A DNA stretch of 64,000 nt from Thermoproteota archaeon (GTDB taxonomy: Archaea > Korarchaeota > Korarchaeia > Korarchaeales > Korarchaeaceae): assembly GCA_027492205.1 (NCBI GenBank), contig JAOZFN010000009.1, forward strand, positions 1 through 64,000, given 5' to 3'. The position numbers and the translations under genes are program-made. The notes beneath the pieces are model-generated. The model saw nothing but the letters and a program-made list of their open reading frames with translations, had not been told where the DNA came from and did no database searches. This document shows positions 2,158-8,460 of the stretch, piece after piece (the stretch's first letter is position 1; each line of letters begins with the position of its first letter).

Positions 2158-3918
2158 CTACATCCTGGCGGCCTCCTCGAGGTCCTTCATGAGGACGGCC
2201 CTCTCGTAGGCCTTGACGACATCGGTTCTCGTCAGTATGCCCACGAGCCTCCCGTCCTCGACGACGGGAAGCCTCCCCACGTCGCACCTCAGCATCTTCA
2301 GGAGCGCGTCGTGCACGGACATACCCGGGGTGACGGTGACCGGCTGCCTGTTCATCACGTCCCTCACCCTGACGCGATCCCACTGGCTCGGGTGAATCCT
2401 CCTCAAGTCGGCGAAGGCCACCATGCCCACGAGCTTACCCTCCGGGTCCACGACCGGAAACCCCATGTGGTGGGTCCTGAGCATGATCTCGTGGAGTTCC
2501 CCCAGCGTTATGTCCGGCTGGACGGTCACGACCTCCCTGACCATGGCGTCGGAGACCCTCAGCCTGTCCAGCACCTCGAGGCCGACTACGGGAACTCGCT
2601 TTCCCCTCTCCTCGATGCGTCTGGTGTAGATCGTGCTCTCCATCAGAATGAGGGAGAGGAAGTAAGCGGTCGAGCACGAGGCGAGGAGAGATGGGATCAG
2701 CTTGTAGTTTCTCCCCAGCTCGGTTATGATCACCACGGCCGTGAGCGGGGCCCTGGCGGCAGCGGCAAAGGTGGCGGCCATCCCGGCGAGTGCGAACATC
2801 TCGGGCGTGCGGAAAACCCCTGGAGAGATCGCGTGGAGTACCTTACCAACCAACGCCCCGGAGGTAGCTCCGATGAAGAGCGTCGGGGTGAATATCCCGC
2901 CCGACCCGCCTGATCCCACGGAAAAAGAGGTTGCGAGTATCTTGACGGCCGTCAGCGTGAGCAGGAGGTGGAGGGTCCCCTCTCCGGAGAGGATTCTATT
3001 CAACCCGTCGAAACCCGGCCCCATGACACCCCATCCCAGACTCCAGAAGGCGAGCAGGCCACTTAGCAGACCACCTAGGGCAGGTTTCAGCCACGCGGGG
3101 GCGGCCCACGCCTCAAACCGATCCTCGACCTCATAGAGTGTGTCGACCCAGACCCTGGCCACGGCGGCCGAGAGGGCCCCGAGCGCCAGCAGGGCGGCTA
3201 CCTCCACGGGGTTCGGAAACGGGATGTGCGCCGGTATCAGGATCACCGGCATGGACTTTCTCAGCGTCCAGGAGACGGATACCGCGGATATCGATGCTAC
3301 AAACGCTGGAATGAGTTCAACGGAGTATACTGCCCCCAGGAGTATCTCCAGGCCGAAGAGAACCCCTCCCAGAGGGGCGTCGAAGGCGGCCGCTATCCCG
3401 GCGGAGAGCCCGGCAATAAGGAGGAGCTTCCTCGGCCTGGCCGGCACCTTGAGGACCTCGGCCGCAAAGGAACCCAGACCCGCCCCGACCTGGCCTATCG
3501 GGCCCTCCCTGCCCGCGCTTCCGCCGAGACCGATCAGGGCCCCGGACGCGAGTATCCTCGCCACCGGAACCCTGGGGGGTATCCTGCCCTCCTTGAACAG
3601 GAAGGCCTCGAGGACGTTTGGAATCCCGTGACCCCTGACGTCGGGCGCGATCTTCCACGCGATCACACCGGAGACCAGCCCGCCCGCCGCGGGGGCGAGG
3701 ATCAACCCCAGGTCGATGAACCCCAGGGTCAGCTCCCCCTCAATCACTTCCAGGAATTCTCTGAAGATCTCTATGGACTTGTCCAGAGCCACGGCGGAGA
3801 GGCCCGCTATCGCTCCGATCGCAACGGCGGAGAGTTCCAGCTTCCCGTAGCGCCTGGTGAGTCCAGCGATTCGCCGCCAGAACACCTGCCTCCTTATCTC
3901 CCTGTGAGGCTCTAACAT
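2158..3918 (-). CDS. CLC-family chloride channel/H+ antiporter with a C-terminal CBS pair
   Basis: GHGIP, GREGP and GGIFTP motifs, multiple TM segments, two CBS domains. Confidence 0.92.
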   Translation of the reverse strand: MLEPHREIRRQVFWRRIAGLTRRYGKLELSAVAIGAIAGLSAVALDKSIEIFREFLEVIEGELTLGFIDLGLILAPAAGGLVSGVIAWKIAPDVRGHGIPNVLEAFLFKEGRIPPRVPVARILASGALIGLGGSAGREGPIGQVGAGLGSFAAEVLKVPARPRKLLLIAGLSAGIAAAFDAPLGGVLFGLEILLGAVYSVELIPAFVASISAVSVSWTLRKSMPVILIPAHIPFPNPVEVAALLALGALSAAVARVWVDTLYEVEDRFEAWAAPAWLKPALGGLLSGLLAFWSLGWGVMGPGFDGLNRILSGEGTLHLLLTLTAVKILATSFSVGSGGSGGIFTPTLFIGATSGALVGKVLHAISPGVFRTPEMFALAGMAATFAAAARAPLTAVVIITELGRNYKLIPSLLASCSTAYFLSLILMESTIYTRRIEERGKRVPVVGLEVLDRLRVSDAMVREVVTVQPDITLGELHEIMLRTHHMGFPVVDPEGKLVGMVAFADLRRIHPSQWDRVRVRDVMNRQPVTVTPGMSVHDALLKMLRCDVGRLPVVEDGRLVGILTRTDVVKAYERAVLMKDLEEAARM

Positions 3919-4001: not shown

Positions 4002-5153
4002 ATGGGCGTCAGAGTCCCGATCTCAAGGCCGCTGCTCGGAGCGGAAGAAGTGGAGGAGGTGGGGCTTGTCCTCAAGAGCGGAATGCTAGCGCAAGGGAAG
4101 AGGGTGAAAGAGCTGGAGGATGGGTTTGCCGAGTACGTGGGCGCTGAGCACGGCATCGCAGTGTCCAACGGGACGCTCGCCCTCCTGGTGGCCCTTCAGG
4201 CCATGGGGATTGGGCCGGGGGACGAGGTCATCACGACCCCCCTCTCGTTCTTCGCGACGGCCTCGACCATCCTCATGACGGGCGCCGTCCCCGTATTCGT
4301 TGACGTTGACCCGGAGACCTACAACCTCGATCCCGGGCGGGTGGAGGAGGTCCTGTCGGATCGCACCCGGGCGATAGTTCCGGTCCACCTCTTCGGCCAC
4401 CCCGTCGACATGGACCCCCTGCTGAAGATAGCTCGGGAGAGGGATCTGCTGATTCTCGAGGACGCCGCGCAGGCTCACGGAGCTGAGTACAGGGGAAGGA
4501 AGGTCGGATCCATCGGCCACGCGGCCGCGTTCAGCTTCTACCCGACGAAGAACATGACGACCGCCGAGGGTGGGATGATAACGACGAGCGACGACCGGCT
4601 GGCAGAGAGGTGTAGGCTCCTCAGAGACCACGGACAGGAGTCAAAGTACGTCCACATCATGCTCGGAATGAACTGCAGGATGACGGATCTCCAGGCGGCC
4701 ATAGGGATAGTGCAGCTGAAAAAGCTGGATAGCATGAATGAGAGAAGGCGGGAGATAGCCAGAACGTACGTAGACGAACTCGGTGGACTCGAAGGGATCG
4801 AAATGCCGGTTGAACGCCCCTGGGCAAGGCACTCCTGGCACCTCTTTGCGGTCAGGGTCACCGGCCCGTCGAGGGACAGGCTGGTGGGAGCGCTCCGCGA
4901 TCGGGGAGTGGATGCCAGGCCGAGTTATCCCATGCCGATATACGACCAGCCTGTGATGAAGAAGCTGGGGATCAGGGAGTTCGACCCACTGTGGTTCGCA
5001 AGGTCGGGGAAGGGGTTCAAGAGGGCGGAGTGCCCGAACGCGGAGAGGCTCGTCGATCAGCTCCTTCTCCTCCCCATCCATCCCGGAATGAGCGACGAGG
5101 ACGTCCAATTCGTCACGAGAGCGGTTAAGGAGGCCCTGAGGGAGGTCAGCTGA
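4002..5153 (+). CDS. DegT/DnrJ/EryC1/StrS PLP-dependent sugar aminotransferase
   Basis: VSNGTLAL, EDAAQAHG, FSFYPTKNMTTAEGG. Confidence 0.92.
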   Translation: MGVRVPISRPLLGAEEVEEVGLVLKSGMLAQGKRVKELEDGFAEYVGAEHGIAVSNGTLALLVALQAMGIGPGDEVITTPLSFFATASTILMTGAVPVFVDVDPETYNLDPGRVEEVLSDRTRAIVPVHLFGHPVDMDPLLKIARERDLLILEDAAQAHGAEYRGRKVGSIGHAAAFSFYPTKNMTTAEGGMITTSDDRLAERCRLLRDHGQESKYVHIMLGMNCRMTDLQAAIGIVQLKKLDSMNERRREIARTYVDELGGLEGIEMPVERPWARHSWHLFAVRVTGPSRDRLVGALRDRGVDARPSYPMPIYDQPVMKKLGIREFDPLWFARSGKGFKRAECPNAERLVDQLLLLPIHPGMSDEDVQFVTRAVKEALREVS

Positions 5154-5646
5154 CCCACCTGCTCAGGGCCGCCCTGAGAACTTTGGATAAGGGGGCGCCG
5201 ACCAGAACTCCAGCCGCCGCCTGAAAGAGGTTCCCGGGCAGCTCCGCGACCGCCGCCCCCGGTCCCAGCAGAATGGCCTCCACGGTGAAGTAGCCCAGCA
5301 CCATCTCGGCCACCGCGACGGTCGCGCCTGCGATCTCCGCCAACCTCCCCCGGCCCGAGACCAAGCCGGCTAGGGCGCCCTCAACTCCCTTGATGGCCAG
5401 AGTGTAGGGGGCGTAGTGAGCGTATCCAGACAGCAGGTCGGCGAGGGCCGAGCCGACTCCTCCGCAGAACGCCCCCACCGTGGGACCGAGAGCCAGTCCC
5501 AGGGCGATCACCACGGTGTCGCCCAAGTTTATGTATCCCTGAGTCGCCGGAACCGGGATCTGCACTACCAGAGTGGTTGCTGCCACGAGGGCGGCGCCCA
5601 TGCCTGCGAAGGCGGCCCAGACGGACCCGTTCCTCGGCCCGGCCAT
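5146..5646 (-). CDS. ECF transporter S component (HmpT/PdxU-like)
   Basis: IPVPATQGYINLGD, GSALADLLSGY and IKGVEG motifs with about 6 TM segments; ATG at 5646 (the longer ORF upstream is antisense to the next gene). Confidence 0.85.
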   Translation of the reverse strand: MAGPRNGSVWAAFAGMGAALVAATTLVVQIPVPATQGYINLGDTVVIALGLALGPTVGAFCGGVGSALADLLSGYAHYAPYTLAIKGVEGALAGLVSGRGRLAEIAGATVAVAEMVLGYFTVEAILLGPGAAVAELPGNLFQAAAGVLVGAPLSKVLRAALSRWVS

Positions 5647-5663
5647 CGCGGGCACCGAAGATG

Positions 5664-5683
5664 TATAAGTCAGCATTCTTATA
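5664..5683. promoter_or_regulatory. Inverted repeat TATAAG-N8-CTTATA between divergent genes (back-to-back TATA boxes and/or operator)
   Basis: Perfect 6-bp inverted repeat in the AT-rich gap between the ECF-S gene and the ThrC-like/wHTH gene. Confidence 0.5.
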
Positions 5684-5712
5684 TTTGAGTCAGAAAGCTT
5701 ATGTATCGGACT

Positions 5713-7086
5713 ATGACGAAGTGGCTGGCCCGCTGCCCCAAGTGTGGGCTGAGCCGCGAGCTGATTCAGGTAACGCCTACCTGCCCCAAATGCGGTACCC
5801 CCCTCCTTCTCCTGCCAGACCTCCAGGAACTGCGGGACAGGGTGACCCCCGACGTCTTGGCCAACAGGGTTGCGGGAGTCTGGAGATACAGGGAACTCCT
5901 GCCGGTCTCTCGGGATCCCGTCACGCTCGGAGAGGGTGGAACCAGGCTCCACGCGTGCAGGAGACTCGGGAGGGAGGCGGATCTGCGCGGCCTCCTGGTG
6001 AAGGACGAGACGAAGAACCCCACAGGCTGCTTCATAGACAGGGGATCCACGGTGCTGGTATCTCGAATAGTTGAAGAGGGATACCAGGGCGTCTACGGAA
6101 CTGTCAAAGGAAACCTTGGGGCCTCTCTCGCTGCCTACTCGGCCAGGGCGGGGGTGGGGTGCGCGGTGAGGGTGGACGGGCCGACCGACCCGGCGAAGCT
6201 CTATCAGATGATTGCCTACGGGGCTGCAGTCTCCCCACCAGACGGCCGAATGGAGGCTCCAGAGCGATACTACAACGTCTTGAACTCTGACCCCCTCCTC
6301 GTGGAGGGCGAGAAGACGATATCGCTGGAGGTGCTGGAGTCCCTGGGGTGGGAGGAGCCTGACGCGATCGTCGTGCCCGTGGGTAGCGGCTCCCTCATGA
6401 CCGCGGTCTGGAAGGGAATCACGGAGGCCAGGGAGCTGGGACTCGTGCGGTCGATGGGCGTCCGACTCTACGGGGTGAGGCCGGGCGAGGAGAGCGCCGT
6501 CGCCCTGGACCTCCACTTTCCTGAGCCAGACCGCTTGGACCAGGCTAGTGAGGCTGTCAGGGAGAGCGGCGGGGACTTGATCACGGTCGGAGACGAGGAG
6601 ATGCTGGAGGCCTCGAGGAAGCTCGCCCGCGCCGAGGGGATATTCGCCGAACCCGCCGCGGCCTCCACGCTGGCGGCCGCGGAGATGCTGAGGGTAGAGG
6701 GAGAGATCTCTCCCTCAGACACGGTCGTCCTCATAGTGACCGGGTCCGGGCTGAAGGACCCCACCGCCGCCGTCAGGGAGCTTGAGAGGCTCCATTTAAC
6801 CGACGCCTACGTGAAGGGGGAGCGCGTTGGCAGGCCGCTCGGGAGGACGAAGACGGCGATCCTGAGGATACTGACCTCTGGTAAGATGCACGGGTACGAG
6901 GTCTGGAGGAGGCTGAGGGGATCCGGCGTGGAGATCTCGCTTCCGGCAGTTTACCAGCACCTCAAGTCGCTAGAGGAGATGGGCGCGATTGCCAGGGTCC
7001 AGACGGTGTCAAAGAATGGGAGGTCTCGCGTGGTCTACTCCATAACCCCGAGAGGCAGGCTCCTCCTGTCGACCGTGGAGGGATGA
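5713..7086 (+). CDS. Threonine-synthase-like PLP fold-II protein lacking the catalytic Lys, fused to a C-terminal PadR/ArsR-like winged HTH
   Basis: N-terminal CxxC..CxxC, TLGEGGT, NPTGCFIDRG (canonical NPTGSFKDRG), VPVGSGS, EPAAAS, TGSGLKD, then ILRILTSGKMHGYEVWRRL..SLPAVYQHLKSLEEMG..YSITPRGR. Confidence 0.85.
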   Translation: MTKWLARCPKCGLSRELIQVTPTCPKCGTPLLLLPDLQELRDRVTPDVLANRVAGVWRYRELLPVSRDPVTLGEGGTRLHACRRLGREADLRGLLVKDETKNPTGCFIDRGSTVLVSRIVEEGYQGVYGTVKGNLGASLAAYSARAGVGCAVRVDGPTDPAKLYQMIAYGAAVSPPDGRMEAPERYYNVLNSDPLLVEGEKTISLEVLESLGWEEPDAIVVPVGSGSLMTAVWKGITEARELGLVRSMGVRLYGVRPGEESAVALDLHFPEPDRLDQASEAVRESGGDLITVGDEEMLEASRKLARAEGIFAEPAAASTLAAAEMLRVEGEISPSDTVVLIVTGSGLKDPTAAVRELERLHLTDAYVKGERVGRPLGRTKTAILRILTSGKMHGYEVWRRLRGSGVEISLPAVYQHLKSLEEMGAIARVQTVSKNGRSRVVYSITPRGRLLLSTVEG

Positions 7087-7124: not shown

Positions 7125-7547
7125 GTGGGTGATTCCGTGAGCTCGGAGGAAAAGAGGCTGAGGATCCTCACGGCCCTGAGGGGGGTCTATGACCCTGAGA
7201 TACCCATCAACGTCGTAGATCTCGGTCTGATCAGGGAGGTCACCGTCGAAGAGAAGGAGGGACCCACTACTGTGAGGGTCAGGTACACTCTCACGGCCCC
7301 CGGGTGTCCGCTGGCCCAGATGCTCTCTTCCCTCATCAAGAAGACCGTAGAGGCCGCAGTCGGCAGCGACGTCAACGTTGAGCTGATCTACGAGGACTTC
7401 CCGCCCTGGACCCCGGCCGACATGACCGAGGAGGGCAGAGAGGAGTTCAAGAGGAGGTACGGCTACGACATAATGGACTCCTTCCTCAAGCAGTGGGGTA
7501 GCATCGAGAACTACGTCGAGGCGGTCAGGAAGGCCCTTGGGAAGTGA
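7125..7547 (+). CDS. DUF59/MIP18/SufT-like Fe-S cluster assembly factor
   Basis: VYDPEIPINVVDLGLI, TLTAPGCP, PPWT. Confidence 0.9.
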   Translation: MGDSVSSEEKRLRILTALRGVYDPEIPINVVDLGLIREVTVEEKEGPTTVRVRYTLTAPGCPLAQMLSSLIKKTVEAAVGSDVNVELIYEDFPPWTPADMTEEGREEFKRRYGYDIMDSFLKQWGSIENYVEAVRKALGK

Positions 7548-7560
7548 AGGTGGCGGGGAC

Positions 7561-8460
7561 TCACCCCCGCTCCGACCCGGTGACGGCCAGCGTCACCCCA
7601 GCCAAGAGGACCGCGCCGCCAATCACGACCCTTAGGGACGGGACCTCGCCCAGCACGACCCAGGCCAGGACCGTCGCTCCTATGGGCTCCATCAGGATCG
7701 CCAGCGAGACCACGTGCGCCTTGACGTACTTCAGGGCGTAGTTGTAGAGGGTGTGACCCACGCATGAGGGTCCCAGGGCCAGGGCCAGAAAGATCGCGTA
7801 CTCCCTGAACGGGTAGCCAGTTAGGGGGCTCCCTATCGAGAGCGCGCCGGCAGCCAGCGCGAGCCCAGAGACCCCGTAGACGGACGCCGCGTAAGACAGG
7901 GTGTCGAGGCTCCTCCTCAGCGCCCTGCCCGCCACCAAGTAGAGTGCCAGGGCCACCGCGCCCGCGAGGGCGAGGGTTGCTCCCAAGAGGTCGCGCTCGG
8001 TGAGGGTCCAGGCCTCGCCTACGATCGCGGCGGCGCCCAGCATTCCCAGAGCGATTCCGACGGCCTCTCGAAGGGTTATCCTGTCTCCAAGGAGGGCCCA
8101 CCCCAAGACGGCGGCAAACATCGGGGCAGAGTCGACCAGCACAACGCTCACCGCAACGGAGGTGTACTTGAGGGAGGTCACCCAAGTCGCGAAGTGAACG
8201 GCCAGGGCGATCCCCGAGGCCGCTAGGTGTGGGAGCAAACCCTCAACGACCTCTACAGATCTCAGTAGGGATGGGAGTGAGACGAGCGACATAATCGCGG
8301 CCGCTATCAGAAGTCTGTTGGCCGCTATCACCATGGCCGGCGCGTTGCTCAGCTTGATCAGGACGCTGGCGGAGGACACGGAGGAGACCCCTATCGCCAG
8401 CGCCAGCCTCGGGTCGAGCCCGCGTTGACCCCGCGCCACGGCCGAGCGCTCCCCCCTCAC
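7561..8460 (-). CDS. DMT/EamA family transporter
   Basis: About 10 TM segments in a duplicated EamA pattern (SLKYTSVA; ALKYVKA..EPIGA). Confidence 0.88.
   Translation of the reverse strand: MRGERSAVARGQRGLDPRLALAIGVSSVSSASVLIKLSNAPAMVIAANRLLIAAAIMSLVSLPSLLRSVEVVEGLLPHLAASGIALAVHFATWVTSLKYTSVAVSVVLVDSAPMFAAVLGWALLGDRITLREAVGIALGMLGAAAIVGEAWTLTERDLLGATLALAGAVALALYLVAGRALRRSLDTLSYAASVYGVSGLALAAGALSIGSPLTGYPFREYAIFLALALGPSCVGHTLYNYALKYVKAHVVSLAILMEPIGATVLAWVVLGEVPSLRVVIGGAVLLAGVTLAVTGSERG

Follow-up and report, generated by a model that had tools for sequence, protein, structure and literature searches.

Bacterial regulators of the MocR family combine an N-terminal GntR winged helix-turn-helix (wHTH) with a fold-type-I aminotransferase domain that keeps the lysine for pyridoxal 5'-phosphate (PLP). 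PdxR regulons include pdxST, pdxK and the pdxU transporter, according to the main text of a paper that also describes the MocR family as 'not present in Archaea' (PMC5320631), and in the main text of a survey of PLP pathways from 2023 the only regulators named are bacterial ones of the PdxR type (PMC9997740). Here we describe a gene in a window of 64,000 nucleotides, i.e. the whole stretch of DNA that was analysed (contig JAOZFN010000009.1, positions 1 to 64,000 of the forward strand, from assembly GCA_027492205.1 of a Thermoproteota archaeon placed in the Korarchaeaceae). Its product carries a threonine synthase (ThrC) fold without the Schiff-base lysine in front of a PadR-type wHTH, and the gene stands head-to-head with that for an energy-coupling factor (ECF) S-component. 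The window gene product is most likely a transcription regulator and not a threonine synthase. On balance we take it to be a probable sensor of vitamin B6, i.e. a pseudoenzyme that would be a fold-type-II analogue of bacterial PdxR/MocR, for which we infer the ligand, the DNA binding and the sign of control.

As in MocR/PdxR, a PLP-enzyme fold is here joined to a winged HTH, and the linked genes are of the same kinds. However, the window protein is of fold type II (ThrC), its wHTH is C-terminal and of PadR type, its lysine is lost and its family is archaeal, so that the two look like convergent designs and not homologs. Relative to the known enzyme-fold/HTH vitamin sensors, the family would be new in being archaeal, fold-type II, Lys-less and convergent. 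We found no prior description of a ThrC-wHTH regulator or of an archaeal B6 regulator in the literature searched, which included the main texts of PMC11237513, PMC5320631 and PMC9997740; supplementary tables could list such proteins.

The wHTH of the window protein is above the cut-off of the PadR family (PF03551) and resembles the solved PadR-like proteins 3ELK and 2ESH. Classical PadR proteins are about 110-180 amino acids (aa) long and have a C-terminal dimerisation helix, whereas the wHTH of the window protein comes after an enzyme fold of 360 aa that provides the predicted dimer interface. The host genome comprises 1.94 Mb on 17 contigs and is 96.4% complete; the guanine-plus-cytosine (GC) content at the locus is 64%. 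The features of the locus are given below, with regulator residues numbered from the ATG at 5701 (ORF, open reading frame; pLDDT, predicted local distance difference test).

5146-5646, minus strand: ECF-type S-component, PdxU2/HmpT-like, candidate B6-vitamer importer (PF07155 match; 166 aa from ATG 5646)
5647-5712, no strand: divergent promoter and putative operator region (three AT-rich boxes in 64% GC DNA)
5661-5669: left AT-rich box ATGTATAAG, conserved in the congeneric loci L119 and L120
5678-5686: central TATA-like AT-rich box CTTATATTT, conserved in L119 and L120
5696-5708: right AT-rich box GCTTATGTATCGG, conserved in L119 and L120
5713-7086, plus strand: ThrC-fold/PadR fusion gene, candidate B6-responsive regulator (ORF open from ATG 5701, 461 aa)
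5734-5793, plus strand: N-terminal Zn-ribbon CPKC...CPKC, residues 12-31 (C28 and C31 invariant, C12 and C15 at least 90% conserved in alignment A1)
5920-6744, plus strand: PLP fold-type-II (PALP) domain, residues 74-348, catalytic Lys gone (PF00291, E 3.1e-55)
6034-6036, plus strand: ATA codon, Ile112 at the Schiff-base Lys position (alignment to solved threonine synthases)
6787-6831, plus strand: flexible linker, residues 363-377 (the sole segment of at least 3 residues with pLDDT below 50)
6859-7068, plus strand: PadR-type wHTH, residues 387-456 (PF03551, 46.9 bits; cut-off 27)

Given starts at ATG 5646 and ATG 5713, the S-component and ThrC-PadR genes are separated by the 66 bp at 5647-5712, and the head-to-head arrangement reported in the first-pass annotation, which was made from the sequence alone, holds with these starts. 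Starting at an alternative in-frame ATG of the S-component gene (5676) or at ATG 5701 of the regulator gene would shrink this spacer. For the regulator ATG 5713 is the likelier start, because a conserved box, CTTATGTAT, overlaps ATG 5701 and in the congeneric L120 stop codons separate the box from the start.

The lysine-less threonine synthase fold

The codons at window positions 6016-6045 (AAC CCC ACA GGC TGC TTC ATA GAC AGG GGA) read NPTGCFIDRG, and in HMMER alignments to the solved threonine synthases 2d1f, 6cgq and 1uim Ile112 falls under the K of NPTGSFKDRG. In the same alignments GTVKGNLGAS falls under ASTGNTSAS, and the VPVGSGS and VTGSGLKD motifs are kept in the window protein. The first-pass annotation had described a Schiff-base motif with isoleucine (ATA) for lysine, TVKGN in place of ASTGN, and a retained PVGSGS phosphate loop and TGSGLK; the alignments to solved ThrCs bear out the two replacements, and both of the retained motifs are found in the protein.

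We compared the Schiff-base position across the family in several ways. The close-homolog set consisted of the best 120 of 1201 matches plus the query (121 rows); nearly all of these 120 are fusions of PF00291 and PF03551 found in bins of archaeal metagenomes, and the named ones are called 'threonine synthase' or 'pyridoxal-phosphate dependent enzyme'. The Schiff-base column held Lys in none of the 121 aligned rows and was mostly I, L, M or V, and because this substitution pattern is common to all 120 of these homologs the loss of the lysine is not a matter of chance. Among 103 ThrC-like ORFs from genome loci, Lys was present in 0/34 wHTH-fused proteins (I 11, L 9, R 6, M 4, V 4), as against 69/69 plain proteins. 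A maximum likelihood tree of 103 PALP-region rows (quick search in IQ-TREE) split fused from plain proteins by a single branch (SH-aLRT 96), and one state change suffices. Finally, a profile search of 1.84 billion 50%-identity representatives, with the best 150 matches aligned, returned 81 PadR-type fusions; the motif region is missing in 3 of these, and 76 of the 78 readable ones are without Lys. Loss of the lysine in ThrC+wHTH fusions at large, which the first-pass annotation had proposed to score, is thus found in the close homologs, the genome loci and the representatives alike.

The fusions fall into at least two subfamilies, in which the motif has either a hydrophobic residue followed by DRG, as in the window protein, or Arg, rarely Lys, followed by DR[A/C]. 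The two Lys-bearing fused representatives, P0173 and P0178, belong to the Arg-type subfamily (NPTxSFKDR[A/S]) and are possible intermediates, which would suggest that fusion preceded loss of the lysine. Among the best 150 matches, 57 unfused representatives keep Lys, and four short representatives with neither Lys nor wHTH are probably fragments. Nine Lys-keeping representatives of 610-633 aa have another C-terminal domain, which is Pfam-confirmed as LeuA_dimer (PF08502) in P0203 and P0266 and inferred by length in the other seven; such fusions of a Lys-bearing ThrC to a LeuA domain may be allosterically regulated ThrCs. At one locus (L169:4494-5941) a Lys-less ThrC-wHTH gene is broken into two overlapping ORFs by a frameshift or an assembly error.

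For a comparison of the pocket, columns at least 85% conserved in the plain ThrCs were checked in the fused set. Fused proteins keep K101, P107, T108, D113, R114, G137, N138, K166, E202, G203, K205, T206, G230, E312, G313, T347, G348, G350 and K352, among which the cofactor-side positions are G137, N138, G230, T347, G348, G350 and K352. The columns lost are K112, A119, K122, I273 and G274. In addition, the fused set varies at the AST of ASTGN, and the Arg that precedes EGxKT in plain ThrCs (NPxRxEG) is missing from all 34 fused proteins, the query reading DPLLVEGEKT. In ThrC structures N138, the G-rich loop and T347 hold the cofactor, and the substrate phosphate is acted on by the Lys, the Ser/Thr of ASTGN and the Arg. 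If these roles hold here, the cofactor side of the pocket would have been kept and the substrate side remodelled. A phospho-amino acid, which had been offered as one possible ligand, is a less probable one, since neither the Arg nor the Ser/Thr of ASTGN, which would hold its phosphate, is conserved.

It had also been suggested that the Lys of TVKGN (K135) could be a catalytic residue that had migrated, and this was not supported. The K135 column is K in just 11 of the 34 fused proteins and otherwise T, N or D, although the closest clade keeps K. No new invariant Lys was found in alignment A1; K101, K166, K205 and K352 are conserved in plain ThrCs too. We therefore rejected K135 as a relocated catalytic lysine.

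Family models point the same way. TIGR00260 scores the window protein at about 130-140 bits, below its cut-off of 167.1, and five other ThrC equivalog models likewise score it under their cut-offs, while a genuine ThrC is encoded elsewhere in the host genome (C7:16728-17726, 227 bits; TIGR00260 cut-off 167). The NCBIfam model NF004170 (PRK05638, equivalog 'threonine synthase') aligns residues 11-459 to model positions 3-441 of 442, i.e. with the wHTH included, and scores the window protein at about 254-258 bits (cut-off 421). Two of ten family members scanned pass this cut-off, P0162 (451.6) and P0185 (427), and both are PadR-fused with Arg for Lys. The name 'threonine synthase' is probably wrong for the model's own members, and the regulator family is mislabelled by it. 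None of 14 control genomes of model archaea reached the NF004170 cut-off, and therefore no standard genetic model has a clear member.

In summary of these comparisons, the window protein shares with the solved threonine synthases 2D1F, 1UIM, 6CGQ and 2ZSJ the same fold (Foldseek template modelling score, TM-score, by target 0.77-0.80, at 33-36% identity), an archaeal-type N-terminus with a Zn-ribbon and, by prediction, a dimer interface. It differs in being without the Schiff-base Lys, in its altered substrate loop and Arg position, in its sub-cut-off TIGR00260 score and in its extra wHTH. We conclude that it is most likely not an enzyme because Ile stands for Lys, Lys is absent from the 121 close homologs and the 34 fused proteins, the split falls on one branch, the Arg is gone and the genome has a separate ThrC; the pseudo-enzyme reading of the first-pass annotation is accordingly supported by the family-wide loss, the tree and the second gene.

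The wHTH matches PF03551 model positions 1-73 of 75, has the putative transcriptional regulator 3elk and the conserved hypothetical protein 2esh as its PDB matches, and contains Y399, Y418 and L424, which are invariant in alignment A1; the match at residues 387-456 confirms that the wHTH is fused at the C-terminus. No GntR-type match was found in the Pfam scan of the protein. An AlphaFold2 monomer model built on a 51-row alignment had a mean pLDDT of 90.2 and a predicted TM-score (pTM) of 0.76, with both domains confident and the linker disordered, and its best Foldseek PDB matches were all threonine synthases (TM-score by target 0.71-0.80). In a homodimer prediction that included two PLP molecules the score was 0.85, compared with 0.00 for the best of 3 controls; the runs shared at least 55% of contacts with a partner pLDDT of at least 86, and in calibration the mark was reached by 20/30 solved pairs and 1/23 single chains. 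The confident interface of the predicted homodimer sits in the PALP domain. This pass may reflect likeness to ThrC dimers, possibly as memory of solved structures, and is not independent proof.

Linked B6 genes and the upstream palindrome

Linkage was examined in a pool made up of the window, 13 loci of its phylum, 80 genome-contig loci and 80 metagenome loci. The 190 ThrC-like ORFs in the pool comprised 129 with Lys, 60 without and 1 unreadable; every one of the 129 unfused ThrC ORFs has kept the lysine, and merging of near-identical cases left 57 distinct Lys-less loci. The loci were gathered with the regulator as query and related genomes are not independent, so the counts describe the sample and no statistical test is attached to them. 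A PF07155 S-component lies within 2 kb at 34 of the 57 loci, 33 of them detected by a hidden Markov model (HMM) built from the window S-component and one (L128, divergent from the regulator) by Pfam (PF07155, 40.4 bits). At four further loci (L050, L160, L163 and L186) pdxS and/or pdxT adjoins the regulator: in L050 pdxS (PF01680, 320 bits) and pdxT (PF01174, 165 bits) are divergent from it, the layout of L160 is identical, L186 has the order pdxS-pdxT-regulator on one strand, and L163 has an adjoining pdxT. Loci whose ThrC ORFs all bear Lys gave no S-component, pdxS or pdxT match (129 Lys-bearing ORFs in total). The co-location with ECF S-component and pdxS/pdxT genes for which the first-pass annotation had suggested looking is therefore present at 34/57 and 4/57 Lys-less loci respectively.

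The 57 loci span Thermoproteota, Nitrososphaerota, Bathyarchaeia and Thorarchaeota, and the linked loci come from bins labelled Thorarchaeota, Bathyarchaeia, Nitrososphaerota/Nitrosopumilales and Pelearchaeum and from the window's own phylum. At loci without linkage the scanned neighbours are housekeeping genes (topoisomerase IB, S-adenosylmethionine synthetase, GatE, FttA, arginase and others); thr genes are not among the few neighbours scanned with Pfam there, no systematic thr/hom search having been made. In the Arg-type subfamily the regulator gene repeatedly lies 3' of GatE (L053, L152) or FttA (L060, L193) on the same strand, with no nearby B6 gene.

The window S-component carries IPVPATQGYINLGD and matches PF07155 with 113.5 bits (cut-off 26.7), which confirms both the motif and the S-component identity given in the first-pass annotation. 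Its single PDB match is 4hzu_S (E 7.9e-12), a Lactobacillus brevis ECF S-component that was first called HmpT and later PdxU2 and that, according to the available text of PMC4860826, binds or carries pyridoxamine; PdxU and PdxU2/HmpT both belong to COG4720/PF07155 (main text of PMC9997740). Among 723 S-component homologs, one Firmicute protein of 49% identity is named by its source 'PdxU2 of predicted pyridoxin-related ECF transporter', and most of the others are named only 'ECF transporter S component'. Together, the Pfam match, the PDB match and this protein place the S-component in the HmpT/PdxU group, where it had first been assigned. The HmpT pocket has six conserved residues, E41, H84, Q87, Y120, N140 and Q143 (available text of PMC4860826), at which the window protein has D, K, E, Y, N and Q, i.e. 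three identical and one conservative. It thus shares with 4HZU chain S the Pfam family, the PAT.G motif and Y120, N140 and Q143, but E41, H84 and Q87 are replaced by D, K and E, and the vitamer carried may differ from that of PdxU2/HmpT. The D and a K-G-x-E-G motif recur in the alignable regulator-linked S-components.

Three EcfT/CbiQ genes are above cut-off in the host genome, none of them adjoining the S-component gene. At L128:2529-5630 (G003) two ATPase-like ORFs and a T-like ORF come after an S-component gene on its strand, an arrangement that resembles a complete ECF operon. The linked S-components of L051, L054, L127, L129, L130, L039, L043 and L046 are about 245 aa long with an HMM match in two overlapping pieces, which points to an insertion or additional helices when compared with the form of 166 aa. 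In the phylum sample (43 species genomes), genomes of genera g3 and g4 have strong PF07155 S-components (about 135-145 bits) and no fused regulator.

The host genome has no PdxS, PdxT or PdxJ match, yet it encodes at least 6 PALP proteins and a DegT aminotransferase, and B6 must therefore come from outside or by an unknown route. The host appears unable to make PLP. Across the phylum sample PdxS was found in 5/43 genomes, none of them with the fusion, and in the genomes with fused loci that were searched, which are of unknown completeness, it was found in just 2 of 20.

A sequence element precedes the regulator gene across phyla. This element, ATATAWAA-N7-CCTATATATAGG, has a right half that is a perfect 12-bp palindrome, and its variants CCTATATATAGG and CCCATATATGGG differ at symmetric positions, so that recognition by a dimer fits better than a plain TATA box. 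Along with the predicted homodimer, this conserved palindrome lends indirect support to specific DNA binding by a dimeric regulator. We counted the palindrome CCYATATATRGG, at up to 2 mismatches, upstream of 52 Lys-less genes with enough upstream DNA. The controls were 110 genes for Lys-bearing ThrCs and, drawn from the same loci, 1040 random windows of 120 nt. The palindrome was present at 23/52 Lys-less genes (12 with 0, 9 with 1 and 2 with 2 mismatches), at 0/110 Lys-bearing genes and in 21/1040 random windows. The occurrences include S-component-linked, pdxST-linked (L050, L160) and unlinked loci. In four of five Nitrososphaerota genomes the bipartite element (up to 2 mismatches) occurs once per genome, always at the regulator gene, and a reversed-pattern control gave no match in the same five genomes. 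At one locus (L140, about 3700-3740) the palindrome stands twice in tandem upstream of the regulator (CCCTATATATAGACCCTATATATAAA).

In the window, the cluster of three boxes at 5647-5712 is unique in the 1.94-Mb host genome, which has 11 single-box matches in all. The right box resembles CCYATATATRGG with 3 mismatches by hand comparison, and the best-scoring window site, again with 3, is the central box, CTTATATTTGAG. A wider regulon was looked for and not found: the host-genome scan for the boxes gave clusters at the regulator's own locus only, and in the five Nitrososphaerota genomes the bipartite element lies at the regulator gene only.

The remaining neighbours of the window locus are a DegT-type PLP aminotransferase gene (4002-5153), convergent with the S-component gene, and, 3' of the regulator, genes for a SufT-like protein (7125-7547) and an EamA transporter (7561-8460). 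We rejected the DegT, SufT-like and EamA genes as parts of the system, since they are conserved within the genus only (L118-L121), as plain synteny.

A candidate B6 switch and the alternatives

A mechanism can be proposed in which the regulator would dimerise through its ThrC-fold domains, as ThrC does, and each of these domains would hold PLP or a related phosphorylated B6 vitamer without a covalent link. Occupancy by the vitamer would alter how the two linker-tethered PadR wHTHs engage AT-rich boxes lying between and over the divergent promoters. In the window, binding at the 66-bp divergent promoter would control both the regulator's own gene and the S-component gene (5146-5646), and the uptake of B6 would thereby be adjusted to the PLP pool of the cell; in B6-producing relatives the regulator is found at pdxST instead. 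For the sign of control, repression by the vitamer-bound form seems most likely, being physiologically sensible. Put at its broadest, the proposal is that of a widespread archaeal family of B6 master regulators (Thermoproteota, Nitrososphaerota, Bathyarchaeia and Asgard Thorarchaeota), in which a Lys-less ThrC fold reads free PLP non-covalently and drives a PadR wHTH onto CCYATATATRGG, so switching import or pdxST, with the window protein as its founding member in print. We advance this broader version tentatively, at a little short of even chances.

Several observations weigh against B6 sensing or against parts of this mechanism. Some members have a degenerate phosphate loop (LSTASGM in P0102 and P0116, VPTATGV in L129), and PLP binding may not be universal in the family; two Pfam-confirmed PadR fusions among the representatives have the lysine (P0173 and P0178). 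PadR repressors are usually released by their ligand, which would mean induction by B6. No B6 gene is nearby at 18 of the 57 Lys-less loci, although at 5 of these the upstream flank is cut by a contig end, and one further locus (L044) has a permease of the APC family, divergent from the regulator, instead. With regard to the transporter, three of the six HmpT pocket residues differ (E41D, H84K, Q87E), PF07155 is titled for riboflavin, and a B6 substrate is predicted from sequence. The palindrome has degenerated in the clade to which the window belongs, where it differs from CCYATATATRGG at 3 positions, and the AT-rich boxes could simply be TATA boxes. PdxS is absent from 38/43 genomes of the phylum with or without the fusion, and therefore auxotrophy does not discriminate, for which reason we set aside phyletic complementarity with PdxS as an argument. 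Finally, no kinase of the Phos_pyr_kin (PdxK) type is above cut-off in the host genome (best 19 bits), which may have a salvage kinase of another type or import PLP itself.

These points bear differently on the alternatives to a B6 sensor. An amino-acid sensor of the GabR kind, in which PLP would be a co-ligand and the signal Thr, Ser, homoserine or a phospho-amino acid held as an external aldimine, would explain the S-component link by amino-acid or cofactor economy and not by B6 homeostasis as such. The fold is indeed one of an enzyme that converts amino acids, fold-type-II enzymes mutated at the lysine hold PLP-amino-acid aldimines, and the divergent neighbour at L044 is a transporter of an amino-acid-permease family; MocR regulators such as GabR also work in this way, as is in part set out in the abstract of PMC5320631. 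However, conservation in the pocket is lowest on the substrate side (the AST of ASTGN and the Arg before EGxKT), the few Pfam-scanned neighbours of unlinked loci are not thr genes (with the limit on that search given above), and the two recurring neighbours are genes of B6 import and B6 synthesis, so we consider such a sensor rather unlikely. We give little credence to the idea that the regulator controls an importer of another micronutrient, e.g. hydroxymethylpyrimidine or riboflavin, with the dead ThrC fold sensing that compound. The riboflavin title of PF07155, the three differing pocket residues and the original naming of HmpT for hydroxymethylpyrimidine (available text of PMC4860826) all agree with it, but the same regulator is tied to the B6-specific pdxS/pdxT at four loci, and its sensor is a PLP fold with the cofactor positions retained.

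It is very improbable that the protein is still an enzyme, i.e. one with threonine synthase or a related activity by way of K135 or of Lys-free catalysis and with a wHTH that is only autoregulatory. K135 does lie in the substrate loop and is kept in the closest clade, and the NCBIfam family bears the name threonine synthase, but the residue is K in only 11/34 fused proteins with no new invariant Lys in alignment A1, the Arg before EGxKT is lost, and the genome encodes a genuine ThrC elsewhere.

The preferred reading, a B6-sensing pseudoenzyme, has consequences for both annotation and biology. The name 'threonine synthase' is given to proteins that score above or near the NF004170 cut-off, so the threonine pathway can be falsely filled in when the metabolism of uncultured archaea is reconstructed. 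If the broader version above is true, no B6 regulator of archaea and no transcription factor made from a fold-type-II PLP pseudoenzyme would precede it, and its origin would be independent of MocR/PdxR. The family would also show plainly how the loss of a single catalytic residue can make a sensor of an enzyme fold, in convergence with MocR but from different parts. The family is a concrete candidate for B6 control in archaea, in which the ligand domain, the DNA motif and the target genes are all testable, and the regulator-linked S-component marks likely B6 auxotrophy and cross-feeding in these lineages.

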